A stretch of DNA of 64,000 nt from an uncultured Acidobacteriota bacterium (GTDB lineage: Bacteria > Acidobacteriota > Vicinamibacteria > Fen-336), in NCBI GenBank assembly GCA_963720545.1, contig OY970399.1:3488001-3552000 (forward strand), in the 5' to 3' direction. The first letter of the stretch is position 1. Each line of letters starts with the position of its first letter. Made by a program: the position numbers and the translations under genes. Below the pieces are notes generated by a model. It did no database searches. It saw nothing but the letters and a program-made list of their open reading frames with translations, and was not told the DNA's origin. This document shows, one piece after another, positions 7,858 to 63,587 of the stretch.

Positions 7858-9971
7858 CCCAGCACCACGTGCAATTCGAGCAGGTTCTGGAGCCACAGCA
7901 GGTACTTGGCGCCCCACTTGGTCGCCGCGCGGCGCGCCGTGCCCTTCTCTTCGATCCAGGTGTTGTTGGCGGGATCGACGTCGATCATGAGCTTGCGTTC
8001 GGGATCGATCACCGCACGCACCACCTTTGGTCCGCCGGGATAGCGGAACCGCGTCCAGCGGTCCTTGCCGTCCCAGTGCTCGAGCTTGCGCGAGCCATCG
8101 GCGAACTCGATGAGGACCCCGGCCGGCATGCGCACGTCGCCAAGCCGCTGCACGGTGACCTCGGCATCCCACGTCTTCGCCTTGTCGTCGCGCTTCGGCG
8201 GGATCGTCACCGTTGGTTCCGGCGCGCCGATGTCGGCAAATCCCTCGAGCTGGCGGCTGGCCGTGTTCTTCGCGCTCACCTTGTAGTCGAGCAGCGAGCT
8301 GCTGTACCAGGTCTCGGCGAAGTACCAGCTGTAGTCGGAGCCGGTGACCTCGTTGACCGTGGCGATGAAGTCGGCGGTGGTCGGGTGCTTGAAGCGCCAG
8401 CGCCGCGCGTAGGTGCGCAGGATGCGCGTCATGGTTTCGTCGCCCACCAGGTTTTCGAGCGTCTGCAGCGTGATCGCCGGCTTGCCGTAGGAGTTGAGCG
8501 TGTAGGCGCCGACCGTGCGGTAGTCCCACGAACGGCGCGCCATCACATCCACCTCGCCGTTGCGGCGCAGGTTGCCGATGTCGTTCTCGCCGCGGGCAAT
8601 GCGCACCCCCGGCGCCACCACGGCAATGCCGCTGCGCTGGCCGCGGCCCGGCACGTTGACACCGAAATAGCGGGTGCCCCAGCCTTCCGGACCGAGCGCG
8701 ATGCGCTGCGACTTCTCGTCGTGGTAGCTGTTGAAGCCCTCGTCGAGCCACGCTTCCTCGAACTCGTTGTTGCCAACGAGCCCGTACCAGAATTGATGGC
8801 CGGCTTCGTGCACGGTGACGCTCTCCGGACTCATGAGGGCCGGCGGTGCGAACAGGTAGGCGCCGCCGGTCAGCAGCGTCGGATACTCCATGCCGCCCGA
8901 CGCCGAGCGCCACGCCGGATCGATCACGGTGATGTTGGGGTAGGGGTACGGCGCGCCCCACGTGCCGTAACTGCGCAGCGCGATGCGCACCGACTCGAAG
9001 TAGCGCGCTTCGAGAAACGCGTGCTCGGGCTGCAGCAGCAGGCGCATGTCGACAGGCGGGTAGCCCGGATCGTCGAACTTCGCGTGCCGGTCGAGGTAGC
9101 GGCGGCTCGCGGTCCAGGCGAAGTCGTGGACGTCGGCCTGCTTGAAGCGCAGCGTCTGTGTGCCGTCCGCCGCATCCTTCTGTTCCTGCAGCGCGCCGGT
9201 GGCGCCGACCACGAAGCCCTGCGGCACCGTCAGGGTCACGTCGTAGACGCCGTAGTCGGCGAAGAACTCGCTGAATGGATGGAATTCGTGCGCGTTCCAG
9301 TCGCCCTTCCAGAAGACGCCGATCTTGGGGAACCACTGCACGATGAAGTTGTAGTCGTGCACCCAGCCGGCGCGGCCGACGTCGCCGTAGGGGACGCGCG
9401 AGTTCCATTCGATACGGAAGCGCGCCGCGGCACCCGGGGCGACAGGCGTAGGCGTGCGCAGCTCCATGACGGTGCGGTCCTCGGCCGGGCCGCCGTCTGG
9501 ATGGATATAGCGCAGCGTCGGCGTGAGGTCGGTTTCGCCCACGCCGTCCAGCAGCGCAGCCCTGGTAACGCGAGTGAACCCGTAGGCGCGGGTGCGTAGC
9601 TCGCCCGTGCCGTCGTTGCGCGGCGAGCGCCGGCCTTCGCCGCGCGCCGACGTCGAGAGGTTGTTGGCGAACGCGTTCCAATAGAGATGGAAAGGGAAGC
9701 GGTCGAGCGCGACGCCCGAAGTGTTGCGCCACTCGAGCACCAGGCTGCCGTCGATCGTGTGCTTGTCGGGATCGAGGCGCGCCGCGATGGTGTAGTTCGC
9801 GTTTCGTTCCGACTGTGTGGGCAGAGGCGGCAGCGCTGGATCGTTCGGGTCCGGCATCGGCGGCAGACCTTTGGCGGTCAGGTTCGCGCTGGAGGTTGGC
9901 GACGGCGCCAGCGCCGAGAACAAGGCAGCGGCGAGAAGCAGCATGCAGGCGGCGGCAGCGCGGCGATTCAC
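7854..9971 (-). CDS. Secreted M1-family zinc aminopeptidase
   Basis: GGMEYP, HEAGHQFW...WLDEG (HExxH-x18-E); signal-like N-terminus; GTG overlaps upstream stop. Confidence 0.92.
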   Translation of the reverse strand: MNRRAAAACMLLLAAALFSALAPSPTSSANLTAKGLPPMPDPNDPALPPLPTQSERNANYTIAARLDPDKHTIDGSLVLEWRNTSGVALDRFPFHLYWNAFANNLSTSARGEGRRSPRNDGTGELRTRAYGFTRVTRAALLDGVGETDLTPTLRYIHPDGGPAEDRTVMELRTPTPVAPGAAARFRIEWNSRVPYGDVGRAGWVHDYNFIVQWFPKIGVFWKGDWNAHEFHPFSEFFADYGVYDVTLTVPQGFVVGATGALQEQKDAADGTQTLRFKQADVHDFAWTASRRYLDRHAKFDDPGYPPVDMRLLLQPEHAFLEARYFESVRIALRSYGTWGAPYPYPNITVIDPAWRSASGGMEYPTLLTGGAYLFAPPALMSPESVTVHEAGHQFWYGLVGNNEFEEAWLDEGFNSYHDEKSQRIALGPEGWGTRYFGVNVPGRGQRSGIAVVAPGVRIARGENDIGNLRRNGEVDVMARRSWDYRTVGAYTLNSYGKPAITLQTLENLVGDETMTRILRTYARRWRFKHPTTADFIATVNEVTGSDYSWYFAETWYSSSLLDYKVSAKNTASRQLEGFADIGAPEPTVTIPPKRDDKAKTWDAEVTVQRLGDVRMPAGVLIEFADGSRKLEHWDGKDRWTRFRYPGGPKVVRAVIDPERKLMIDVDPANNTWIEEKGTARRAATKWGAKYLLWLQNLLELHVVLG

Positions 9972-12349: not shown

Positions 12350-13705
12350 TCAGAGATGCGGCTCTCGCCACTCCGGCGGGGTGATGCGCAAGCGCGGGTT
12401 CGCCGGGTCCTTTGGCCACAGCGTGCACGTCACCGTGCGATGCGCTTCGTCCTCGCGCTCGCAGTAAGGACAGAACACGCACTCGCGCATTGCCGCGTCC
12501 TCGCCCGCGAGCCACTTCCGCGGCAGGTCCGGATCCGCCAGGATCGCGCGCGCCATGCCCACCAGGTCCGCGCGCGACTCGGCCAGCACGGACTCCGCCT
12601 GCGCGAACGTCCAGATGCGGCCCGACGCGACCACCGGCACCTCATAGCCCGCCGCGCGCACGGCGGCGCGCACCCGCGTCGCCAGCGGCACGTTCACGCC
12701 CCAGGGTTCGCCCTTGCGCCGGGGGATACAGCAATGGCCGCTGTTGCCGGTGTACGGGTACATCGCGGTGCCAACCTCCGGCTGGCGCGCGTCCTCGAAC
12801 TTGCCGCCGCGCGAGATCGAGAGGAAGTCGAGCCCCGCCGCGCAGAGCGCGACGCCGATCTGCGCCGCATCTTCCATTGTGTTGCCGACAATGGTGCCGT
12901 CCTCCGCCAGGATGTCTTCGGAGCCGAGGTAGCGGCAGCCCACCACGAACCCGGGGCCGACGGCGGCGCGCACCGCCGCGATCACCTCGCGCGGCAGCCG
13001 CATGCGGTTCTCGAAGCTGCCGCCGTACGCGTCGCGCCGGCCGTTCAGCACCGAGAGGAACTGCGCCATCGTGTACGCGTGCGCAAAATGCAGCTCGACG
13101 CCGTCGAAGCCGCACTGCTGTGCGCGCCGCGCCGCGGCGGCGAACAAGTCGGGGAGCCTGCGAATCTCCGCAATGTCGAGATCCTCGATCGTCTGCCGAT
13201 AGCCGTAGCGGAAATCGTGCAGCGCGCGCGGCGCCAGGAATTCCGCGGCCCGCGCCTCGAACTCGGCATCGCTGAGCGCGAGCACCGCGGCAGCCAGCGA
13301 CCCGCGCGCGACGCTCGCCTCGAGATAGTCGCGGGTCGCCTTGCGCGTCGCGATCTTGAGGAAGTCGATGAGCTGCGGCACGATCAGCGAGCGACCGTTC
13401 AGCGCACGCATCTCGCCGACCAGGGAGCGCAACCCCGGGATGAAGCGGTCGTCGCCGAGGCGCAGCAGCGGGCCGCTCTTCACGTCGCGGACGCCGATCG
13501 CCTCGAGCACCATCATGCCCGCGCCGCCGGCCGCATAGCGCGCATAGATCTCGCGCACCGAATCGGTCACGTAGCCGTCTTCGCTGCCGCGCCAGGTGAC
13601 CATGGCGGGCAGCCAGATGCGGTTGGGCAATGTCAGCCCGCCGCGACCGAGCGGCATGGGGGTGAAAAGCCGCGACCCGGCGCGCGGCAAAGGCGCAGCC
13701 GTCAA
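12350..13705 (-). CDS. NADH:flavin oxidoreductase (Old Yellow Enzyme family) with C-terminal Cys cluster
   Basis: LPNRIWLPAM, GFDGVELHFAHAY, YGGSFENRMR, ADLVGMARAILADP, CVFCPYC-x11-C. Confidence 0.9.
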   Translation of the reverse strand: MTAAPLPRAGSRLFTPMPLGRGGLTLPNRIWLPAMVTWRGSEDGYVTDSVREIYARYAAGGAGMMVLEAIGVRDVKSGPLLRLGDDRFIPGLRSLVGEMRALNGRSLIVPQLIDFLKIATRKATRDYLEASVARGSLAAAVLALSDAEFEARAAEFLAPRALHDFRYGYRQTIEDLDIAEIRRLPDLFAAAARRAQQCGFDGVELHFAHAYTMAQFLSVLNGRRDAYGGSFENRMRLPREVIAAVRAAVGPGFVVGCRYLGSEDILAEDGTIVGNTMEDAAQIGVALCAAGLDFLSISRGGKFEDARQPEVGTAMYPYTGNSGHCCIPRRKGEPWGVNVPLATRVRAAVRAAGYEVPVVASGRIWTFAQAESVLAESRADLVGMARAILADPDLPRKWLAGEDAAMRECVFCPYCEREDEAHRTVTCTLWPKDPANPRLRITPPEWREPHL

Positions 13706-42012: not shown

Positions 42013-43002
42013 CTACTTGTTCAACACCCTCTTCGGGAACTTGGCGACGACCGTGTGGTTGGGATCGACGACGTTGGCGACGCGCACCACGCCGGCCTGC
42101 GACACGACCTGGTACGCCTCCATCTTGTCGAAGCCGTAATCGGCGACCAGCCACTCGATGAGTTCGACGTACGCGATGCGTAGCGCGTCGAGCGTGGGCC
42201 GGATGCTTGCGGCGACCATCATGTAGTCGTTGTTCTCGATCCGCGGCCAGCGGATCTTCCGGCCTTTCTGCAGCTCGAACTGAAACGTGACGTCGGCGGT
42301 CGATTCGAGGCCCGAGCCGACAATTTCGCCGTCGCCTTGCAGAGCATGAAAGTCGCCAAAGTAGAAGAGGCCGCCATCGTGAAACACGGGCAGGTACACC
42401 GTAGCGCCTTCGCAAACGTCGGAGGCGTCGAGGTTGCCGCCGAAATCACCGGGCCACAGCCCGCCCCAGGCTTCCTCACCGGCCGGCGCCACCGCCACGC
42501 GTCCGAGCATCCCGTGGAGCGGCAGCTCGACGCGCTTGATGGCGGACTTCGGCGTTTCGAGGATGCCGACCATCCGCTGGCGGTCGAGTTTCCAGACGAA
42601 GCGTCGCGCCGGCAGTGGATCATTGAGCATACGAGTGCGGTTGTCGGCCGCCACGCCGCTGATGCCATTGGGCGTGACATTCGAGATAGCAGTGTCCCGA
42701 TTCGGCGCCAGCTTGAGAATGCGCACCACCAGAGTGTCTCCAGGTGCCGCGCCCTCGATGAAGAAGGGACCCACCTCGCCCGGCCACGGTCCGGCCGTGT
42801 CGGCGTCGTAGTAGTCGCCAGCCTTGGAGAAGGTCTGCGTCACCACGGTATCTCCCGGCTTCACGCGCAACACGGGCTCACGCACGGTGAACGTCTGCAC
42901 ACCGGCTGTCGCCTTGAAGGTGTGTTGCTCGCACACCGCCGCTTGCGGAAACGCCAGCCCGACGAACGCGACCACCCACACGCGGCTAGCAGCTGTCTTC
43001 AT
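42013..43002 (-). CDS. Acetamidase/formamidase family protein (signal peptide)
   Basis: GPFFIEGAAPGDTL, FGGNLD, GDFHALQGDGE. Confidence 0.9.
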   Translation of the reverse strand: MKTAASRVWVVAFVGLAFPQAAVCEQHTFKATAGVQTFTVREPVLRVKPGDTVVTQTFSKAGDYYDADTAGPWPGEVGPFFIEGAAPGDTLVVRILKLAPNRDTAISNVTPNGISGVAADNRTRMLNDPLPARRFVWKLDRQRMVGILETPKSAIKRVELPLHGMLGRVAVAPAGEEAWGGLWPGDFGGNLDASDVCEGATVYLPVFHDGGLFYFGDFHALQGDGEIVGSGLESTADVTFQFELQKGRKIRWPRIENNDYMMVAASIRPTLDALRIAYVELIEWLVADYGFDKMEAYQVVSQAGVVRVANVVDPNHTVVAKFPKRVLNK

Positions 43003-43029
43003 GAAGTCTCCCTCGCTACTTGACCCGCG

Positions 43030-43776
43030 CTATGCCTCATTGTGCATGACCTCATTCCACAGCACGCGCTTCCAGCGCGGGTATGAGGCTGGCTGGTATT
43101 CGAATCGGCCGACAGCGCAATTTCGGATCTTCTCGGACTTGTAGAGCTCGACGACGCCGTCCTCGTCAAGCCGCTGCAGGTGAAACGCGAACGTCACGAT
43201 CGTCACGGCGTGCGACACGATCAGGACGTGCGCTCCGTGGCGATTCGGCTGGAACAGCTTGCCGAGAAACATGTAGGTGCGCTGGCAAACGTCCGCCCAG
43301 CTGTCGCCATTGTCGGGGCGTGTATAGAACTTGCCGGAGTTCTTGCGATGCGCCTCGAAGCGCGCGGTCGCCGCCTCGAAGTGCGGGGCCGTTTCGTCGA
43401 GCGCGTTGACGACGTCGGCGTAGCCGAAGTCCTGCTCGCGCAGTAGGATGTCGCGCCGCCCTTCTGGCTCGCCCAGCCGCTCCCGCCAAGCCGGTGGAAA
43501 CCCCGAGATCAGGCCCTCCTTGGTTTCAACGGTTCGCTTGTAGGGACTGAAGTACGCATAGTCAAAACCGCCTGGAATCCGTTGCGCCAGGGCGGTTCCG
43601 GTCGCGCGTGCCTGACGACGTCCAAGCTCAGTCAGCGGCACCTTGTGGTTGGGTGTTCCGCGTAAAGAAGCCGGAACGGCATGCACAGATTCGGGATCAT
43701 GCAGGTTCGATTCCGACTGGCCATGGCGAACCAGCGTGATGGACGCCGGCCGGTACTGACTCGCCTGAACTTCCAT
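43030..43776 (-). CDS. Histidine phosphatase (phosphoglycerate mutase family)
   Basis: LVRHGQSESN, LTELGRRQA, SPYKRT, LREQDFG, VSH. Confidence 0.92.
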   Translation of the reverse strand: MEVQASQYRPASITLVRHGQSESNLHDPESVHAVPASLRGTPNHKVPLTELGRRQARATGTALAQRIPGGFDYAYFSPYKRTVETKEGLISGFPPAWRERLGEPEGRRDILLREQDFGYADVVNALDETAPHFEAATARFEAHRKNSGKFYTRPDNGDSWADVCQRTYMFLGKLFQPNRHGAHVLIVSHAVTIVTFAFHLQRLDEDGVVELYKSEKIRNCAVGRFEYQPASYPRWKRVLWNEVMHNEA

Positions 43777-43963
43777 TTCCGAGAGCTCTCTGCCGCCAGA
43801 CTATAGCTCCCTGCGCCGCTCGGAACGTTCGGTCCAGTTACGTCAGCGGCGGGGCATGAGGTTGAGCGCCAGCGTTCCGTTCGACTTCGTGAATTGCAAG
43901 TGTGGCCAGACCCTTGAAGCACATTTGCTGGCGTCCTCGCTAGAACTCGCTGACGTCACACTA

Positions 43964-45010
43964 TTAAGCCCGGTGGCGACGGGAAAAAAGTGGTGACGGG
44001 GGAGAGTGAGATTGGAGCCGGCGTGAGTTCTCTCCGACGACGGCGTACATCGCGCCAGGAATAATGATCAGCGACAGTGGCACCAGAAAATGACGCGTCT
44101 CCGCCGGAGTCGAGATCAGGAACTGGGTCAGGGTCCATATCGGCACCATGGTTGCTCCAAGGAGTTTCAACTCGAAGGGCCAGCGGCGCCAGCTCATGAT
44201 TGCAAGCACCGGCATCACGGTGAAGGTTGCTATGAAACGCCACCACGTGCGGGGCATCGTGAGGTTGTCGCGGAGCGCAACCCACCCCAATGCGGAGCCG
44301 GATGCGGTATGAGGGCCACCGTAGCCTAGATACCAGCGAAGGGTCAGCAGGATCGCGATGTGCAGGAGCAGAGCAACGAAACCGACAACTATCGCTCGAC
44401 GGCGATGCTCCCGCACCGAGACTAGTCCGAACACGCACAGAAACGCGGGCACCAGAATGCTGGTTTCACGGTTTAAGGCTCCAAGAATTGACAGTGGGAT
44501 TATCGCGAGATACCAACCGTCCACGAGGAGCAAACCGGCCGTTAGGTAGACGATCGCATCTCCATAAGTGTTGAAGGACAGGTCGCTGTTGTAGAACATT
44601 TGTCCCATCGACCATGCGAGGCAACTCAAGGCGAGCAAGATCCGCGAGTCGGACAATCCAAGCCGCCGGTACCAAGCGGTGGCCAACAAAAATATTGCGA
44701 TGTTTTGAACCACGCGAACTCCCCAGAAGCCCGTGACGTAGGGGTCCTTCGCACCAATCACGTCACGCGAGACCCTGACGGCTCCGGAAGCGACCCATTC
44801 CGAAAGCACCCTGTAGCGCCAAGGGTTCGGTGCCTTGCCTTTCATGACTTGGCTGTGGCGAAATACTTGAACGTCCATCGGTGTGACGAGAAACTGCGCA
44901 CGAACCAACATCGTTCCCAAGCCTGCTGCCAAGAAGAAGTACAAAACCCGACGAAGCCACCTCGTGCGCCTACTGTCGTTCTCGGCTAGGCCAGCCTTAG
45001 TTGGGAGCAT
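43964..45010 (-). CDS. Polytopic membrane protein, possibly GT-C-like
   Basis: About 9 hydrophobic segments, PWRYRVL, LNRETS, ETRHF; atypical codon usage. Confidence 0.65.
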   Translation of the reverse strand: MLPTKAGLAENDSRRTRWLRRVLYFFLAAGLGTMLVRAQFLVTPMDVQVFRHSQVMKGKAPNPWRYRVLSEWVASGAVRVSRDVIGAKDPYVTGFWGVRVVQNIAIFLLATAWYRRLGLSDSRILLALSCLAWSMGQMFYNSDLSFNTYGDAIVYLTAGLLLVDGWYLAIIPLSILGALNRETSILVPAFLCVFGLVSVREHRRRAIVVGFVALLLHIAILLTLRWYLGYGGPHTASGSALGWVALRDNLTMPRTWWRFIATFTVMPVLAIMSWRRWPFELKLLGATMVPIWTLTQFLISTPAETRHFLVPLSLIIIPGAMYAVVGENSRRLQSHSPPSPLFSRRHRA

Positions 45011-46004
45011 CGCACCTAGAACAGCTGCCGTGCCACCGAACTTGCTGGGGCGTGCATGCAGCGCGCGCGTTCCACGGATCGGTGGCCCACGCCTTCCTGG
45101 GCTGTTCGGTACCCGATCCGAAACCGCGATATGAACACTTTCCAGGTGCGACTAATATGCCGGTTTCATCGCATTCAATGCCTATTCCGTCGCCGTCGGC
45201 GTCCGAACCAGTAACGCCGAGGATTACGCGGCAGTGAGGGGCGGAGCACACTAGTCCCGACCCCTGGCCTACTTTGCAGACGGGAGCACTATTGACGCCC
45301 GTGAAATCCTTGCTTGCCGACGCAGCCGCGCCGTGTGAGTCAGTAACGGTCACCTGTGCCGAGTAAGTTCCAAGCGTGGTAACAATACACGTTGATGTTT
45401 GATCAGCCCCTGAAGCGCAGCCGAGCCAGCGGTAAGCGATGGGATCTCGATCTGGATCGCTCGCACTGGCACTGATTGCGAGGGTGCACGGGCTGGTTGG
45501 TGTTGGGTGGCAAGCGACTTCGCTGGAATTGATCTCGACTTTGGGTGCTTCATTGTGCGTAGGCGCGGCCGTGGGCTCTGGCGTGGGCTTGGGGGTCGGC
45601 GGCTTGCCGCCCGTAGTTCGGTCGACGCTGATCTTTGCTGTACCCGTCACGGTCGCGTTCTTCGTGTCACTGACGATCACGCTGATGGTGTCGGTGCCGG
45701 CCGTGCCGTTGTTCAGGTACTGCGCGCGGCCCGGCTGGCTCGAATCGGGGATTGCGAATACGCCGTGCGTCGCGTGGAACGTATAGAAGAGACGATCGTC
45801 TTCAGGATCTCGCGCGGTCACCACTACCATCGCCGATCCCCCGGGGGTTATTGCATTGGGCTCGACACTGACACCCTGAATGGCCGGTGAACGATTTCCC
45901 GCTGGCCCGGTCGGCAGTGTCGCGCCACCGCCACAGGCGAATGCGGTCGCCAATGCAAACCCGACAAGCCACACGAACGCACAGCGTCTGAGCTCCTGAG
46001 CCAT
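44997..46004 (-). CDS. Putative lipoprotein with tandem Ig/PKD-like domains
   Basis: Lipobox AFA-C-GGG; N.AP...DPE/DGD.L.Y.W...VTVTD..G repeats; Cys-rich C-terminus. Confidence 0.7.
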   Translation of the reverse strand: MAQELRRCAFVWLVGFALATAFACGGGATLPTGPAGNRSPAIQGVSVEPNAITPGGSAMVVVTARDPEDDRLFYTFHATHGVFAIPDSSQPGRAQYLNNGTAGTDTISVIVSDTKNATVTGTAKISVDRTTGGKPPTPKPTPEPTAAPTHNEAPKVEINSSEVACHPTPTSPCTLAISASASDPDRDPIAYRWLGCASGADQTSTCIVTTLGTYSAQVTVTDSHGAAASASKDFTGVNSAPVCKVGQGSGLVCSAPHCRVILGVTGSDADGDGIGIECDETGILVAPGKCSYRGFGSGTEQPRKAWATDPWNARAACTPQQVRWHGSCSRCDAPN

Positions 46005-56237: not shown

Positions 56238-57155
56238 CTACCGTAAGGCGGCTAGTTGCTTCCAGTTGATGAGGATGAAGCCCTGCTCGCGGAGGTAGTT
56301 GCGGAACGCGGGGCTGCTCACGAGGTTGAGGTCCCATTCGCGCCAGGCGGCGCCCCAGTCGGGATGGTCCGCGGTCGCGCCGCGCATCTCCTCGTCGTCA
56401 TAGCCAAGGTGGACGATCAGCTGGTAAACGCCCGGCGGCAGCGGCGTGAGGATGTCCCTGTAAGCGGCGAACCACTGGTCGCGCGTGACGCCGGGACCGA
56501 TGGAGACGACGCGGTCGACGAAGGCTTCGTCGCGCGCCGCGGTGGCCGGTGCGTTGCGCGAGCCACTGCGTTCCAGCAGTCGCGGCAGGTTCACGGCCTC
56601 GCCGACGCGGCGATACGTCTCGAACAGCGGCTCGGAGCGGAACAGCATCGCCATGTGCGAGTCGATGTGCGACAGGCGAATGCCCGCCGAGCGTGCCCGT
56701 TCCACCTGTGCCTTCAGCTCCACCTCGACTTCCGCCGGCACCGCGCGCGGCACGACCAGTTCCTCGTTCAGCGGCAGGTAGCCCTGGGCGTCCATGAGGC
56801 TCGGCACCTTGTCCACCGGGCTCACCGGCCGCCAGCGAAACGGCGTCCACTCGCTGTTGAGCGCCAGGTGGATGCCAAGGTCCGCGTCCGGATGAGCCGC
56901 GGCGAAGCTCACGACCTCGGGAAACCACGGGCACGGGACCAGGATACTGGCCGACGTGACCCAGCCGTTTTCGAGCGCTTTGAACGTGGCGCGGTTGACC
57001 GAGTGGGACATGCCGAGGTCGTCGGCATGAATGATCAGCAGGCGCGATTCGGCGGGGTAGCCGAGCCGCTCCTGCACGGTGCGTGTTTCGCTTGCGGTCG
57101 CGGTGGCCACCGCGAGTGCTGCTGCGAGCCAGGGCATCACTGCCATACGCCGCAT
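56238..57155 (-). CDS. ChbG/YdjC family carbohydrate deacetylase (signal peptide)
   Basis: IIHADDLG, GIHLAL, SHIDSHM, VHLG. Confidence 0.9.
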   Translation of the reverse strand: MRRMAVMPWLAAALAVATATASETRTVQERLGYPAESRLLIIHADDLGMSHSVNRATFKALENGWVTSASILVPCPWFPEVVSFAAAHPDADLGIHLALNSEWTPFRWRPVSPVDKVPSLMDAQGYLPLNEELVVPRAVPAEVEVELKAQVERARSAGIRLSHIDSHMAMLFRSEPLFETYRRVGEAVNLPRLLERSGSRNAPATAARDEAFVDRVVSIGPGVTRDQWFAAYRDILTPLPPGVYQLIVHLGYDDEEMRGATADHPDWGAAWREWDLNLVSSPAFRNYLREQGFILINWKQLAALR

Positions 57156-57301
57156 GCTAGGACTTTTTCAGCTCGAGGCGCATGGTCGGGCGCGCTTTCG
57201 TCGGCCGGGCGACAGTCTCGAACCCGGCGCGGCGGAACGTACTGACGTCGATAGCTCCGGTATCAGCGGCCGAATCGTCAGCATTGGTCGGCGTTGCTCG
57301 A

Positions 57302-58153
57302 CTACTGCAATTGAGTTCCGTCGGCTTCGGGGCGGTCGTCCCCTTGCAGCTCGTCGTGCGTGCCCGCCGGGCCCCGCTCTAGGCCGGTTTCGAGGGCGCC
57401 GATACGGCCCTGGCGGTCGAGAGTCATCGTGGTCGGCCACACGCGGATGCCGGCGCGACGGGCGATGCGCAGGTCGCTGTCCGGCACCGTGGTGAACCGC
57501 TCGCCGAGATGTCCGGCCACCACTTCTGACTCGCGGCCGCCAGCGCCGCCGAGCACCACGACGAGGTTGACGCCGCGCTCTTCCGCGGCGTCGTAGCGCG
57601 CGGCGAGATTGCGCAGGTGCGCCATGGTCGCATCGGTCACAGCGGGCACGAAAGTCACGACCGTGCCGTAGCTGCCGCGGCTCCACGGAAACGGCGGACA
57701 GGGATCCTGCAGCGCCGAGTAGTCGATGGGCCACAACAAGTCGCCGATGGGAAACAGCTTGTCGACGCCCCAGGCCGCGCCGATCACGTCGAGGTTCGGC
57801 GACGGGCTGGTGACAAGACGGCTGTCGAGCGCGTGCGTCAGCTGGCGCGCGTCCAGCTCGCCTTCGTGCGACCACGTCACGTCGCCGGCGGGGCCCACCA
57901 GGCGGGCGCTGCCGTCTTCGAGGCGAAATGCGCGCGACCAGCGGCCGCCGACGTCCTCGGCCACGACCGTCGCGAGGCCCATCTCCGCACCCACACGCTG
58001 CAGTGCGGTGACCGGTCCGTCACGCCGGTCGAGGCGCTGGCCTTCGGGGACGAGTGCCAGCAGCGCCAGGCCGGCATCGCGGCGGTGGCTCGAGGCGAGC
58101 GCGGCGCCGATCGCGGCCGCGGCCTCATGGCTCAGGGATTCGCCGGCGTGCAC
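57302..58153 (-). CDS. Tandem thioredoxin/redoxin-like folds without CxxC; probably the frameshifted C-terminus of 58125-59951
   Basis: EDVGGRWSRAF...LVGPAG.V.W and PDSDLRIARRAGIRVWPTTMTLDRQGRI; frame stays open upstream (LAAHNTLIVH). Confidence 0.6.
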   Translation of the reverse strand: MHAGESLSHEAAAAIGAALASSHRRDAGLALLALVPEGQRLDRRDGPVTALQRVGAEMGLATVVAEDVGGRWSRAFRLEDGSARLVGPAGDVTWSHEGELDARQLTHALDSRLVTSPSPNLDVIGAAWGVDKLFPIGDLLWPIDYSALQDPCPPFPWSRGSYGTVVTFVPAVTDATMAHLRNLAARYDAAEERGVNLVVVLGGAGGRESEVVAGHLGERFTTVPDSDLRIARRAGIRVWPTTMTLDRQGRIGALETGLERGPAGTHDELQGDDRPEADGTQLQ

Positions 58154-59951
58154 GATGAGCGTGTTGTGCGCCGCTAGCAGCGCGGTTCGTCACGGCGAGG
58201 TCCACGCGCGCCAGCTGCGGGAACGGAACGTCCTGCGACAGCTCCGGAACGTCGGTGAAGTCGTGGCCGAACAGCGGGCCGGGATCGACTTGGAGCCCGG
58301 CGTAGATGTTGAACCCGAAGTGATTGCACTCGGTCTTGCTGGTGACGCGCTCGAGGTCGCCGGTGACAGCGTTCACCTGTGCCCCCTGGATCCACAAGCA
58401 CACACGACCCGAGACGTCGACTCCCGGCAGCGGCTCGGTGCCCTCGAACGCGATGTCGATGCCCCAGCGGCCCTTGCCGGCCCGCGGCCGGCGCAGCACG
58501 AAGCGGTCGGCCCAGGTTTTCGCGCCGGTGGCCTGCGAGCCATAGGTGGTCCACGACCAGGAAAACTTGTCGATGCGGCCGCCCGGGATCCACGCCTTCA
58601 CGGCGGTCAGCGCGTCGCCTTCGCCGGTCTTCTCGAACATCACCACGGGCCGCTGGCGGCGCGACACCGAGATGCGCCCGCGCAGGATCATGCCGTCGCC
58701 GAGGAACTCCGCGCCTTCAACGCGCGCGCCGGCGCCGGCGTCGAGCGTGCGCAGCTGGGTCACGAGCTCCGCCTTGCGGCCGAGGATGGCATCGACATCC
58801 GGTTGCGCGGCGGCGCAGGCGTTCTCGATCATCGGCTTCACGATGCCGTCGATGGTGCTCTTCACCGTGCCCTCGACGATGCCGCCGAACGGCCCACCCA
58901 CGTGGGCGTTGACCTTGCGCGAGCCGACGCCCAGCCACAACCGCTCCGAGCCGCTGTCGAAGTTGACTGTGATGTCCTGGTCGATGTCGAAGGTGGCGTT
59001 GGGAAGGATCGAGTCGGTGTTGGCGCCGCCGCTGACCTTGATCTTGATCACGGCGAAGCCGCCGTAGGGATGCCACTCGACGACCGGCGGGTTGGTCCAC
59101 ACGCGGTAAACGGTGTCGATGTCGGGCGCGGGCCACGGCGTGCCGACGTGCACCTTGATCGTCGGGTGGAAGTCGCGGATGGGTGCCAGCGCAGGCTCGG
59201 CCAGCGCCATGACCGTGGCGGTGCTCACCGCGATGCCGAAGTCGGCGCCTTGCAGGAACAGCCAGTTGACGCTCGCGATGTTGCCGGCCGGATCGCCATT
59301 GACCGGCACCGGCGCCACGACTGCAGTCTCGCCGTTCGCGTCGAGGCTGCGCAGCGAACCGCGCCGGAAGCGCTTCGACACCGGGTGCGGCGTCGCCTGG
59401 AACTCGGTCAGCAGCGCCACCGCGACCTGCCGGCTGATGCGCTCCTCGACCTGCGCATGGTCTTCGACGGCGCCGCCCGGTGTGTACATGCCGGTGAAAT
59501 TGATCTCGTCCTCAGCGGTTCCGGCGAAATGCACGGTCTCCGGCACCACGCGCACCCACACGTGGTCCGCGGCCTTCTTCGACCAGCCCAGGCACTTCGG
59601 ATCGATGTCGGCGATGTGGTACTGCGCGCGCACTGTGCCGTTCATGTACTGGGGCAGCGGTTTGGTGCCGGCATCCGGCAGGTAGCGGGCGCGCACCGGC
59701 ACTTCGATCCAGAAGCGGTCGGTGGAGCCGCCGATGAGCGAGACGCGCGGCGCGCCCACCTGCGCCTTGACCGTGCCGAGGACGCCGTCGACCTTGTGGA
59801 CCTGGCCGAGGCGCAGCTGCACGCTGTGCGGAAAGCTCGGCGTGTCGGGATTGGTGAACGCGTTCTGGTGGAGGCTCGCCATCAGGCGGTTGATGGTCTT
59901 GCCGCTCACCTGCAAGACAGCATCGAAGTCACCGGTCAACGGGTTCGGCAT
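58125..59951 (-). CDS. Large beta-rich hypothetical protein, possible TULIP/BPI-like fold
   Basis: DAVLQVSGKTINRLM and DFGIAVS motifs, long amphipathic strands and helices; no signal peptide; strong codon bias. Confidence 0.7.
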   Translation of the reverse strand: MPNPLTGDFDAVLQVSGKTINRLMASLHQNAFTNPDTPSFPHSVQLRLGQVHKVDGVLGTVKAQVGAPRVSLIGGSTDRFWIEVPVRARYLPDAGTKPLPQYMNGTVRAQYHIADIDPKCLGWSKKAADHVWVRVVPETVHFAGTAEDEINFTGMYTPGGAVEDHAQVEERISRQVAVALLTEFQATPHPVSKRFRRGSLRSLDANGETAVVAPVPVNGDPAGNIASVNWLFLQGADFGIAVSTATVMALAEPALAPIRDFHPTIKVHVGTPWPAPDIDTVYRVWTNPPVVEWHPYGGFAVIKIKVSGGANTDSILPNATFDIDQDITVNFDSGSERLWLGVGSRKVNAHVGGPFGGIVEGTVKSTIDGIVKPMIENACAAAQPDVDAILGRKAELVTQLRTLDAGAGARVEGAEFLGDGMILRGRISVSRRQRPVVMFEKTGEGDALTAVKAWIPGGRIDKFSWSWTTYGSQATGAKTWADRFVLRRPRAGKGRWGIDIAFEGTEPLPGVDVSGRVCLWIQGAQVNAVTGDLERVTSKTECNHFGFNIYAGLQVDPGPLFGHDFTDVPELSQDVPFPQLARVDLAVTNRAASGAQHAHRARRRIPEP

Positions 59952-59985
59952 GATTCAGGTTCGCTTTCCGACCGCGCGCTCGCGG

Positions 59986-60987
59986 TCACTTGTTGATGGC
60001 GAAGTGGTTCTCGAGTTCTTTCGCGGTCAGCGCCTTGCTGTGCAGCACCACCTCCTGGATGACGCTCAGGATCGGCTGGTGGACGGTCTCCGGCTGCGCC
60101 GGGTTGAGCTGGCCGTTCTCGATGCCGATGTAGAGCGGCAAGCCCACCGGCGGCGCGTACGCGGCGACCGCTGCCTCGGCCACCTGGCTGCCGTTGATGA
60201 ACAGGCGCACGCGGTGCTGCGTGCCCACCTTTTCCACGGTCATCGCGATGTGAATGGCAGCGAGCATCGCGACCGGCGCGCTGGTGAGCGGCACCGCGCC
60301 GGCTGGAGCAAGGCCTACGGCCCACGCGTTCTGGATGCTGGCCAGAAGCTGGAACCCGTGTCCGCTCGGTGGCGGCGCCGGCTCGGCGTAGAGGCCGGCC
60401 GCGCTCCACAGCGTGTGTTCGTAGTTCGCGACCTTGGTCCACGCGGGCGTGATCCACGCTTCGAGCGTGAAATCGGTGGGATGCAGGCCGGCTTTCCACG
60501 GGATGCGCACGAACCCGCCTCCGAAATGGCGTGCCTTCACGGAAGGGTCGGTGACGATGAGGCTCGCCTGGTTGACGACGAACGTGCCGGCGGCTCCCTC
60601 GGTGGCGTCGCCCTGGTTATCGGGCAGCAGCCCGGGCGAGACGTATTCGCCGTCCTGGAAGCCTTTCTCGTCGTGCGCCACGTTGGAGGTCGGCGCATCG
60701 ACGAGGCGCCAGTAGCCGACCACGGCATTGGGGTCCGGCACGATCTCGGGGTTGGGTACGGTCCCGGGATTGTTCGGCACGCCCATGATGTAGTCGCGGT
60801 AGCGCGGCGGCTTCGGCTTTTCCGTGGGCGGCTTGGAAGGGTCGACTTTGGAAGGCGGTGTCTCGGCGCTCGGCTCGGCCTCGGAGGGGGTCGCACCGAC
60901 GCCGAAGCTGCTGCAGCCGACGAAGCGGAACAGCACGACGATGGGCAGCGCCAGCAGGGGCAGCAGCAGGTACAACCAGTCAGCCAT
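59986..60987 (-). CDS. LamG/ConA-like domain putative lipoprotein
   Basis: Hydrophobic N-term ending FVG-C25, Pro/Ser/Thr/Lys linker, VGYWRL, FTLEAWI, HIAMT, LFINGS, IQEVVLHSKALT. Confidence 0.82.
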   Translation of the reverse strand: MADWLYLLLPLLALPIVVLFRFVGCSSFGVGATPSEAEPSAETPPSKVDPSKPPTEKPKPPRYRDYIMGVPNNPGTVPNPEIVPDPNAVVGYWRLVDAPTSNVAHDEKGFQDGEYVSPGLLPDNQGDATEGAAGTFVVNQASLIVTDPSVKARHFGGGFVRIPWKAGLHPTDFTLEAWITPAWTKVANYEHTLWSAAGLYAEPAPPPSGHGFQLLASIQNAWAVGLAPAGAVPLTSAPVAMLAAIHIAMTVEKVGTQHRVRLFINGSQVAEAAVAAYAPPVGLPLYIGIENGQLNPAQPETVHQPILSVIQEVVLHSKALTAKELENHFAINK

Positions 60988-61725
60988 CTAGTTCCTCCAC
61001 GCAGTGATGAGGACGGCAAGGGACAGGGAGACGAGCCCCAGGGATAACGCGCGCTGCAGGCGCAAGCCGAAGGCGCGGTCTTGGGTTTCGCGCGCTGCTT
61101 CGAGGAGGGCGCGAACCGCGCCGTAGCCGCACACCGTGGCGAGAAAGACGACGCCAGCGGCTGGGCTAGTGCGCTGAAGCGCAAAGACCGCGGCCAGCAG
61201 CAAGGCCGCGCTGGCAGCCTCGAGCAGCTGGTTCGGCACGCGGCGCGCCCACACGCCCAGGTGGTTCGGCAGGTACATGCCGAACCGGCTGTTCGTCGGC
61301 CTGCCCGCGCAGCAGCCGTTCAGGAAGCAGCCCGCGCGCGTGATCGCCATGCCGGCCAGCATCGTGAAGGAAGCGCTGTCCCAGAAGCGCCAGAACGGAA
61401 CTGCGAGCGCCGCGAGCAGCGGGACCGACACCGGCACGGCAAGCAGCAGGCCGCCATAGAGCGCACCGCCGCCTTCGTTGCGCGCGTACATCGCCGCGCG
61501 GTTGCTGCGGTATGCGGACCAGTGACTGAGGACGAACAGCAGCCGCGAGCCGAGAAGCGCCGGGATCAGCAGCAGCAGCGTCGCGAGCGAGACCTGGCCG
61601 ACAACGAGGTGCATACGCGCCGCCACCGACTGCTGCACGAACATGCCGGCGACGATACCGGTGGCGAGCATCGCCGGATAGCTGTGGATCCGCAGCCCAT
61701 TCCATTGCAGCAGCACGCGGCGCAT
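60988..61725 (-). CDS. lgt: Prolipoprotein diacylglyceryl transferase, divergent (GCFLNGCC type)
   Basis: IHSYP, LGSRL, GGxxxYGG, RAGCFLNGCCAG, PNQLLE, YGAVRALLE. Confidence 0.85.
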   Translation of the reverse strand: MRRVLLQWNGLRIHSYPAMLATGIVAGMFVQQSVAARMHLVVGQVSLATLLLLIPALLGSRLLFVLSHWSAYRSNRAAMYARNEGGGALYGGLLLAVPVSVPLLAALAVPFWRFWDSASFTMLAGMAITRAGCFLNGCCAGRPTNSRFGMYLPNHLGVWARRVPNQLLEAASAALLLAAVFALQRTSPAAGVVFLATVCGYGAVRALLEAARETQDRAFGLRLQRALSLGLVSLSLAVLITAWRN

Positions 61726-61729
61726 TGGG

Positions 61730-62179
61730 TCAGCCCCGCAGTCCTGAAGCAGCCGCAACCAGCGCCCCGGCGACGATCGCGGCATCGGCGAGATTCCACG
61801 CCGGCCAGAAGCGCAGGTCGATGAAGTCGACGACGCCGCCGCGCGCCAGCCGGTCGGCGAGATTGCTCGCGGCGCCGCCGAGCGCCGCGCCCAGTGCAAC
61901 GCGGGCGGTGAGCGTGGCGAAGAAGGGCGTTGCGCTCACCAGCAGCATGAGGGCCGCCGCCTCGAGGGCGAGCAGCACGACGAGGGCGCGGCCGCCTCGG
62001 GCGGCACGCCCGCCGGCGCCGCGAGGATTGAGGCCCACGCGCAGCAGCGCACGGCGTGCCGAAGCCGCACTGCTCGCCGGCAGGTGCGACAGCGCGAAAT
62101 GCTTCGTGGCCTGGTCGAGGATCAGCACCAGCGCTGCTGAAAAAAGCAGCCACGCAGGCGACGTTGAAGTGACAATCAC
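61730..62179 (-). CDS. lspA: Lipoprotein signal peptidase II
   Basis: LDQATK, NPRGA, GGAASNLADR, VVDFID, WNLAD. Confidence 0.88.
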   Translation of the reverse strand: MIVTSTSPAWLLFSAALVLILDQATKHFALSHLPASSAASARRALLRVGLNPRGAGGRAARGGRALVVLLALEAAALMLLVSATPFFATLTARVALGAALGGAASNLADRLARGGVVDFIDLRFWPAWNLADAAIVAGALVAAASGLRG

Positions 62180-62298
62180 GATGTCCCGAACGGCGCTTTG
62201 GGAAGAGGTGGGCGCAGGCTACCGGCGCCTAGACGCCGATTGCAAGCAAAAGCGACGCAGCTCCGACTATGCTCTGCGGACACTATTGGGGGCCTTCA

Positions 62299-63587
62299 AT
62301 GATCAAGACGCACACGGCACGCATCGTCCTGGGGATGGCCTTGCTCATCCCGGCATGTCGGCTGCCGGCGCCCCACAGCCAGGCGCAAAGCCACGGGCGC
62401 GCGACCTCGGCGTTCCATTTGACGGGACACCGGGGTCAGCCAATGCGATCACCGATGTGCAGGGTGTCGAGGTCGGCTACACGACGCTCGTTTCGGGCGA
62501 AGGCAAGCGCGAGACCGGCAAGGGGCCGGTGCGCACCGGCGTGACCGCGATACTGCCGCGCGGCCGCGAGTCGCTGGCACCGGTGTTCGCCGCGTTCACC
62601 ATCGGTAACGGCAACGGCGACATGACCGGCACGCACTGGATCGAGGAGAACGGCGTGCTCGAGACGCCGATCCTCATCACCAACACCCTGAGCGTCGGGG
62701 TGGTGCGCGACGCCGCGGTGTCGTGGCTCGTGAAGCGCGATGCGCCGGCGACCTTCTGGTATCCGGTGGTCGCGGAAACATCCGACGGCTGGTTGAACGA
62801 CCAGAAGGGCCAGCACGTGAAGGCCGAGCATGCGCTTGCGGCGCTCGAAGCGGCGCGCGGCGGAGCCATCGCTGAGGGCAATGTTGGTGGCGGCACCGGC
62901 ATGTTGTGCAACGGATTCAAGGGCGGCACCGGCACGGCTTCGCGGCGGCTCGCAGCCGAGGCCGGCGGCTACACCATCGGCGCCCTGGTGCAGTGCAACT
63001 ACGGCCTGCGCTCCGACCTGCGGATCGCCGGCATTCCGGTTGGCCGCGAGATCAAGGGCTACCAGCCGTGCGTCGCGCAGAAGATCGAACCGCCAGTGCG
63101 CCGCGGCAACGGCGATCCGTTTCCGGTCTGCGGGCCCGACGGCGCCTCGGTTTCGACGCTGGCCGAAGGCGAGGGTACGGAAGTGGAGCAGGGATCGATC
63201 ATCGTCGTGATCGCGACCGACGCGCCGCTTTCACCCGACCAGCTGAAGCGCGTCGTGAGGCGGGTGAGCCTTGGCCTGGGACGCCTGGGATCGACCCACG
63301 GCAACGGCTCCGGCGACATCTTCATCGCCTTCTCCACGGCGAACTCCGGCGCCGATGCCGGCAACAGCGAGACCGGCAAGGGTCCGGCGACGATCACACG
63401 ACTGCGTGCGGCCGGCATGGATCCGCTGTTTCTCGCCACCGTCGAAGCCACCGAGGAGGCGGTTGTCAACGCGATGGTTGCCGCCGAGACCATGACGGGC
63501 TCCGACTACATTCGGGTCCACGCGATACCGCACGAGCCGTTGCGCGCCGTGCTGCGGGCCCACGGGCGGTTGACCGAAGCTAAGTAA
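62299..63587 (+). CDS. DmpA/P1 (S58) aminopeptidase; signal peptide out of frame (or start at 62355)
   Basis: RARDLG, NAITDV.GV.VG, RTGVT, EGNVGGGTGM, G|SIIVVIATDAPL autocleavage site, GSGD. Confidence 0.88.

Follow-up and report, generated by a model that had tools for sequence, protein, structure and literature searches.

The main finding of this work is a four-gene operon, located in a 64,000-nucleotide stretch of DNA from an uncultured Acidobacteriota bacterium (hereafter, the window), which carries its own copies of the lipoprotein-processing enzymes Lgt and LspA together with a LamG protein bearing a lipoprotein-type signal and a large TULIP- and redoxin-like protein. The cassette is real and conserved, and apparently undescribed, and its role as a private pathway for its own substrate is well supported. 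We further propose, with a probability of roughly 0.6, that it constitutes a mirror-image lipoprotein pathway in which Lgt, LspA and the substrate signal would be flipped together, so that a protein would be lipidated on the membrane's cytoplasmic face and its anchor handled by the TULIP protein, as an inside-cell counterpart of LolA. Each component comes from an established family, and the novelty lies in the orientation and in the system as a whole.

Reversed charges in the enzymes and in the substrate signal

The initial annotation had suggested a private maturation pathway and proposed a check for separate housekeeping copies in the genome, and such copies are indeed present: a second lspA-lgt pair with higher scores lies at 804882-806133, and housekeeping lgt and lspA were also found in the 5/5 other cassette genomes checked. 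The Lgt of the window scores 117.9 bits (PF01790 cut-off 24.9) and its LspA 78.1 bits (PF01252 cut-off 25), yet both fall below the NCBIfam equivalog cut-offs (for Lgt, 73.8 vs 118.9 for TIGR00544). The phylogenies suggested there as a check, built with FastTree, rooted on one housekeeping row and with four partial rows left out, placed the 23 cassette Lgt in one clade and the 22 cassette LspA in another, apart from the housekeeping and other spare copies (support of 1.0 and 0.992, respectively).

In the canonical pathway, the C-terminus and cationic face of Lgt and both termini of LspA are cytoplasmic, according to PMC8689077. To compare the copies, Lys and Arg (Lys+Arg) were counted in the loops of aligned sequences, with the helices marked by hand on the housekeeping copy; only complete, non-identical copies were used, and partial frames and the G064 loci were left out. 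The cassette Lgt was reversed in 23/23 copies, with a mean of 3.0 Lys+Arg on the canonical inside vs 14.2 on the canonical outside, and the housekeeping Lgt was normal in 32/32 (11.9 inside vs 6.2 outside). Likewise, the cassette LspA was reversed in 22/22 copies (0.5 vs 7.2), and the 31 housekeeping LspA comprised 24 normal, 3 even and 4 reversed copies (6.0 vs 4.3). The window follows this pattern, with 4 Lys+Arg inside vs 13 outside in Lgt (15 vs 7 in the housekeeping copy) and 1 vs 8 in LspA (7 vs 6 in the housekeeping copy). A further 119/119 closest Lgt homologues were also reversed; among 22 additional spare copies of Lgt in the phylum, 17 were normal, 2 even and 3 reversed. Judged by this charge proxy, neither the C-terminus and cationic face of the cassette Lgt nor the two termini and cationic end of the cassette LspA take the canonical cytoplasmic place.

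In six genomes a normal housekeeping pair and a reversed cassette pair were found side by side, and because the charge signs are opposite within each of the 6 genomes, G+C content is removed as a cause. A general excess of Arg does not explain the pattern either, since the cassette enzymes lost the inside charge clusters while their outside loops gained Arg. Under 16 helix-boundary settings, every cassette Lgt was reversed in 15 and 17/23 in the last one, and the cassette LspA was reversed in 16/16; the result for the cassette was also robust to a changed flank size. Very divergent Lgt-like domains occur in longer frames at loci L134 (3857-5959) and L135 (5205-6398), with a charge bias that is reversed as well (Lys+Arg of 4 vs 10 and 2 vs 7), and, lying on a separate branch, they could represent a second inversion. 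An apparent Lgt-LamG fusion (P0441, locus L015) was not counted as evidence on topology, because its last Lgt helix is replaced by a stretch that looks out of frame, probably through a frameshift.

The catalytic machinery is largely kept. The cassette Lgt aligns with E. coli Lgt (5azb), and the columns of R143, R239, R246 and G104, placed through this alignment in E. coli numbering, are invariant in 23/23 copies, with Y26 present in 21/23 and Y235 in 22/23. The cassette LspA aligns with the solved LspA chains 9emz and 5dir and keeps both catalytic Asp columns in 22/22; from the motif of its extracytoplasmic loop, the conserved G and F were lost in the cassette clade.

The substrate signal shows the same reversal. 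It consists of an acidic N-terminal end without Lys or Arg, a hydrophobic stretch of 17 residues, an Arg at -4 and the ending F-R-F-V-G-Cys25, with F22, G24 and C25 invariant across 122 aligned homologues, and the substrate of the window is the sole match to the signal profile in its genome. As in canonical prolipoproteins, the Cys follows a hydrophobic segment with a small residue at -1; their positively charged N-region is missing. Lys or Arg in the N-region was seen in 0/34 distinct locus signals and in 1/113 scored homologues (7/120 were not scorable), of which 88/113 had Asp or Glu in the N-region and 104/113 Lys or Arg at -4. Among 38 heuristic lipobox candidates of the window's genome, 36 had Lys or Arg in the N-region, and this gene is among the exceptions. 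Under the positive-inside rule (PMC13721041), such reversed charges favour insertion with the N-terminus out and the Cys in. With the charges of Lgt, LspA and the signal all reversed, three separate proteins would flip together. The surface lectin of the initial annotation is thus not supported, since both enzymes and the substrate signal point to the cytoplasmic face; its private maturation pathway is well supported, on the strength of the housekeeping copies, the clades and the linkage described below, but probably not with an outward orientation.

We hypothesize that the substrate inserts with its N-terminus out, which would leave the Cys and the folded domain in the cytoplasm, and that an upside-down Lgt, whose catalytic residues are kept, would add diacylglyceryl to the Cys. 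An upside-down LspA would next remove the signal, yielding a diacylated protein in the inner leaflet. The signal-less TULIP-redoxin protein, in the same compartment, may then act as a carrier of the LolA kind that binds the lipid anchor, or else bind an adjacent lipid; this is the weakest step. On the sequence evidence, the cassette enzymes are very likely inverted in the membrane and lipidation probably takes place on the cytoplasmic side; the TULIP partner as carrier of the anchor is a tentative assignment. Because an inner-leaflet product would be out of reach of the housekeeping enzymes, this model would also explain why the cassette must carry its own copies.

Linkage, spread and layout of the cassette

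Homologues of the large protein numbered 169 among 8000 candidates scored and 436 among 50% clusters, with source names that include Alphaproteobacteria, Pyrinomonadaceae, Desulfobacterales, Gemmatimonadaceae and Streptomyces; at species level, sources name it in Rhizomicrobium palustre and Streptomyces chartreusis. The cassette is found across phyla, in scattered unrelated bacteria, and the named hosts include diderms and a Streptomyces. The large protein was absent from 40/40 closest relatives, and viral contigs and plasmids yielded no relative. Among 63 homologous loci, most of them on contigs that end too soon and a few near-duplicates, the cassette Lgt was present in 34, LspA in 29, the signal in 37 and all three within 5.5 kb in 28; of the 11 loci flanked on either side by 3 kb or more, 9 had all three partners, one the signal only (genome G397) and one none. 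These proportions (28/63 and 9/11) argue against a chance operon. Synteny, the point on which the initial annotation proposed to judge homologues of the large protein, is conserved, with gene orders that vary among four genes in line, convergent pairs and a large gene followed by the substrate. Across 401 genomes of the phylum, the large-protein profile matched 89, full-length in 4 only and by the redoxin end only in the others. Those 4/401 genomes are also the ones that match the profile of the cassette Lgt (E 1e-45, a cut-off of our own choice) and that of the signal (E 1e-7 or better); two other genomes have weak, partial matches to the signal profile.

G397 combines the large protein with the cassette Lgt and the signal, although the genes are split over two contigs. 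In G397:C4 (L189, 7789-11860), lgt and lspA of the inverted type flank two LamG substrates and a 159-residue coiled-coil-like protein with a Cys/Pro-rich tail; in G397:C1 (L172, 8249-11512), the large gene and a 171-residue non-LamG substrate lie apart from the contig that bears lgt and lspA. At L057 (6549-8000) and L066 (12631-13269), with no nearby lgt or lspA, a HExxH protein directly follows the large gene; it has a weak Peptidase_M91 match at L066 (E 4.3e-04) and none at L057. Patatin-like genes adjoin the cassette or the large gene at L005 (5807-7603) and L051 (1627-2658) and are not conserved. No conserved fifth gene, integrase or defence neighbourhood was seen among the clustered neighbours, as delimited by a rough gene caller.

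The operon of the window lies on the minus strand, in the order lspA, lgt, LamG protein and large protein, with gaps of 4, 0 and 34 nucleotides. Coordinates and Pfam matches (Peptidase_A8, LGT and Laminin_G_3) confirmed the co-oriented, tightly packed arrangement with unrelated flanks first described in the initial annotation. Its features are as follows:

61730..62179, minus strand: cassette-type LspA, 149 amino acids, GTG start (start codon uncertain); PF01252, E 1e-21
60988..61725, minus strand: cassette-type Lgt, 245 amino acids; PF01790, E 5.9e-34
60913..60987, minus strand: reverse-type lipoprotein signal of the substrate, ending in F-R-F-V-G-Cys25; from the sequence
59986..60987, minus strand: substrate lipoprotein, 333 amino acids, with signal, Pro-rich linker and LamG/concanavalin A-like domain; PF13385, E 6.1e-09
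58175..59951, minus strand: N-terminal part of the large protein, with a double TULIP (about 1-430) and a beta-rich domain (about 430-550); from the P0002 model
58174..58174, no strand: additional base behind the frameshift in the large gene, a probable assembly error; absent from the X1 and X7 contigs
57302..58173, minus strand: C-terminal part of the large protein, a ResA/TlpA-like domain without the CxxC cysteines, probably with a second, thioredoxin-like domain ahead of it

The flanking genes, a YdjC-like gene (56238-57155) and a peptidase S58 gene on the plus strand, are unrelated to the cassette, and no promoter-like site was seen in 57000-62500. Elsewhere in the window, positions 43000-46000 have a G+C content of about 0.595, vs 0.68 over most of its length, and may be an acquired segment.

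The large protein is present in the operon from 59951, as the initial annotation stated, but not as one frame: a first frame (59951-58125, 608 amino acids) is followed by another that runs down to 57302, and the two correspond to residues 1-583 and 589-864 of P0002, a homologue without the break. In two public runs, each from a different study (X1, depth 3.6, possibly the source sample; X7, depth 2.1), the contigs lack one base at 58174, and two further runs had no coverage at this position. Since most homologues are single unbroken proteins of 850-900 amino acids, the frame break is most likely an assembly error, and the intact gene would by arithmetic encode about 882 amino acids.

The large partner and the mature substrate

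The fold of the large protein was approached through a model of P0002, which is 61% identical to its N-terminal part (predicted local distance difference test, pLDDT, 84.3). Foldseek matched the model to BPI (E 1.1e-10) and P47 (E 2.8e-09), and VIA-align superposed its residues 1-428 on P47 (6ekt) with Z 14.0 and a root-mean-square deviation (rmsd) of 4.8 over 354 aligned residues at 9% identity, so the model has the BPI/P47-like double domain of the TULIP superfamily, in which a twisted sheet wraps a long helix. The P47 sequence family itself had no Pfam match in the 608-residue part and was not among the PDB sequence hits, and no orfX1-3 or toxin neighbours are conserved at the cassette; a weak Atlas feature match of 0.78 (19% of members with PF06597) counts as no more than a lead. 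The C-terminal part is 41% identical to P0002 residues 590-853, the family profile matches ResA (E 1.4e-06), and VIA-align with ResA (2f9s; Z 12.9, rmsd 2.9, 119 aligned residues) identified a thioredoxin-like fold; from its secondary-structure pattern, the domain ahead of it is probably a second one. The initial description of a TULIP-like and redoxin-like protein is therefore borne out by the profile match and by Foldseek and VIA-align on the P0002 model.

The CxxC of TlpA and ResA is not kept, with Ser at its two positions in 99/115 and 109/115 homologues and Thr-x-x-Thr in the window. Twenty of 185 large proteins keep the Cys of the second position, in a S-x-x-C-like motif, a distant subfamily (P0202, P0212, P0223, P0254 and relatives; L171, 8922-11537) has a stronger match to AhpC-TSA, above the Pfam cut-off, and G169 carries a distant single-Cys subfamily in the same kind of cassette. 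Neither a Sec-like hydrophobic N-terminal end nor a twin-Arg motif was found in any of 115 homologues. The beta-rich domain (425-585) had no usable match in the Atlas, and the BFVD search gave no useful fold match. Co-folding of the L011 large protein (residues 1-712, with the last redoxin domain omitted) with its own LamG domain scored 0.00, which speaks neither for nor against binding.

The LamG domain of the substrate was modelled with AlphaFold2 (pLDDT 91.2), and Foldseek matched it best to concanavalin A-like domains, including the lectin-like one of trypanosomal sialidases. A LamG protein with Cys25 is present, as annotated, but LamG does not define the substrate: the mature domain is usually LamG, and at some loci the same signal precedes other beta-rich domains without a Pfam match. 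A varying mature domain behind a constant signal and Cys fits recognition of the anchor. Cassettes have one to three substrates, and at L010 two of them (9226-9966 and 12642-13391), with tandem Ig-like-looking, Thr/Pro-rich domains without a Pfam match, flank the large gene.

Alternative explanations and known systems

Several observations weigh against an inverted pathway. The topology is read from the positive-inside rule alone, and the sequences are related, so that the counts are not independent. In the housekeeping enzymes used for comparison, the bias of Lgt nearly disappears when the helices are widened by two residues and that of LspA is weak. In Lgt, the E. coli catalytic His103 is Tyr in 20/23 cassette and 25/32 housekeeping copies, and only the cassette clade lost His196. 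Domains of the LamG and Ig-like kinds are characteristic of exported proteins; moreover, a classifier based on composition, itself rough (cross-validated area under the curve of 0.87), scored the LamG domain as secreted-like (median 0.89) and the large protein at 0.32, although its calls may be biased by beta-rich folds. Four Cys of the large protein are conserved, each in 114/115 homologues, and they are lost in pairs (of 185 proteins, 143 keep all four, 32 the second pair only, 2 the first pair only and 5 none, with 3 other cases), and this suggests two disulfides and an oxidising place. Finally, the large gene at L057, where both flanks are present, has no cassette genes nearby, as at some other loci. 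Given the paired Cys, the extracellular-type substrate domains and an orientation that comes from charges only, the final place of action may be either the inner leaflet or outside, by release after lipidation inside.

The second of these outcomes shares with our preferred explanation the inverted substrate, Lgt and LspA, and differs in what follows: the TULIP protein would detach the lipidated lectin from the inner leaflet, and the complex would leave the cell as a lectin-tipped particle, through lysis or non-classical export, with disulfides that form once it is out, in loose analogy to the P47/OrfX proteins that accompany released toxins. It reconciles the reversed charges with the paired cysteines and the extracellular-type domains, and the HExxH protein after the large gene in two independent loci without the enzymes is consistent with it. 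The folds nearest to that of the TULIP protein, P47 and OrfX3, come from gene clusters that lie near toxin genes (PMC13030710), but the likeness to P47 is one of fold only, at 9% identity. Conserved genes for toxins, lysis or secretion are lacking at the cassette, and PADLOC profiles of anti-phage systems known in 2023 gave no match for 8/8 proteins at E 0.01. We consider this outcome unlikely, though a serious competitor.

Extracellular-type domains and composition, together with the paired cysteines of the partner, would also be expected if the enzymes faced outwards as usual and served an unusual signal that the housekeeping pair handles poorly, with a periplasmic or surface lectin as product and the TULIP protein exported by other means. 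Moreover, the lipoproteins described in the reviews consulted all face outwards. This explanation leaves the joint charge reversal of Lgt, LspA and signal unaccounted for, and it meets partners without a signal peptide in 115/115 cases and no export genes conserved near the cassette; we regard it as improbable.

About as improbable, or slightly more so, is a role in lipid repair, with the same inverted lipidation, in which the lipoprotein would be a membrane dock, the TULIP protein would take up lipids such as hydroperoxides, and the redoxin would reduce or sense them. The second CxxC Cys kept in 20/185 proteins and the AhpC-TSA matches of distant members agree with it, and TULIP proteins bind lipids (PMC6791001; bioRxiv 2025.09.09.675085); but the clade of the window lacks a Cys at the redoxin site (109/115 Ser), and unrelated mature domains are unlikely to form one docking surface. 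A chance cluster or decaying lgt and lspA copies, to which the frameshift in the window and the scores below the NCBIfam cut-offs might point, are already contradicted by synteny and conservation: the linkage recurs in several gene orders, the catalytic columns are kept, presence matches in 4/401 genomes and the frameshift is absent from independent contigs, which leaves this explanation almost no credit.

The initial annotation did not recognise the arrangement as a described system, and we found no account of the cassette, or of an inverted Lgt or LspA, in the literature searched, a search whose scope excluded most subscription papers. To our knowledge, bacteria do not anchor proteins in this way on the inside of the cell, and the outward face assumed for diacylglyceryl lipoproteins is attributed to that of Lgt and LspA. 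If the mirror-image pathway is true, this rule would be broken by a natural, portable cassette with enzymes and substrate inverted, offering a clean three-protein case of evolutionary topology inversion. It would also define a new class of inner-leaflet anchored proteins, now annotated as ordinary lgt, lspA and hypothetical genes, supply a bacterial P47-like TULIP with a ligand that is concrete and testable, and provide a portable tool for anchoring proteins in the inner leaflet.

With the canonical Lgt/LspA/Lnt pathway (5AZB, 5DIR) the cassette shares the enzyme families, the active-site columns and the Gly-Cys that ends a hydrophobic N-terminal segment, and it differs in the reversed charges of enzymes and signal, the private copies, the lack of lnt among conserved neighbours and the TULIP partner. 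LolA is a soluble carrier that shields a lipid anchor, is periplasmic and needs LolCDE; the anchor-shielding role that we propose for the large protein would be alike, whereas LolA has a different fold, a periplasmic place and a dependence on LolCDE. The role of LolA as a lipoprotein carrier is set out in PMC8689077. A section of the same paper describes extra lspA paralogues, namely lspA3 and lspA4 in the myxovirescin cluster of Myxococcus and two lspA in a globomycin producer. These resemble the cassette as spare lspA/lgt copies beside housekeeping ones, but they serve self-protection or regulation and can complement E. coli, and that section mentions no inversion, dedicated substrate or TULIP protein.

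P47, OrfX2 and OrfX3 (6EKT, 8FBD) and BPI/LBP/CETP share the double-TULIP fold over residues 1-430, but the P47 group is only about 9% identical to the cassette protein, which has no Pfam P47 match and is distinguished by fused beta-rich and redoxin-like domains, a single gene, linked lipidation enzymes and the absence of a toxin gene. The TipA-TipB pair of Bdellovibrio (bioRxiv 2025.09.09.675085) likewise combines in one operon a double TULIP that holds lipid with a beta-sandwich protein, and differs in that the abstract describes neither lipidation enzymes nor redoxin domains. In the Skillet-1 Lipocone operons (bioRxiv 2025.01.14.632903), dedicated lipidation is predicted for a neighbouring protein whose lipobox is unusual and whose concanavalin A, jelly-roll or Ig-like domain varies; there, the enzyme is a Lipocone protein, Ser replaces Cys, no LspA or TULIP partner is described in the relevant passage and the process is assumed to be extracellular. 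In the literature searched, this predicted Skillet-1/Ser-lipobox system is the nearest idea in print, with another enzyme.

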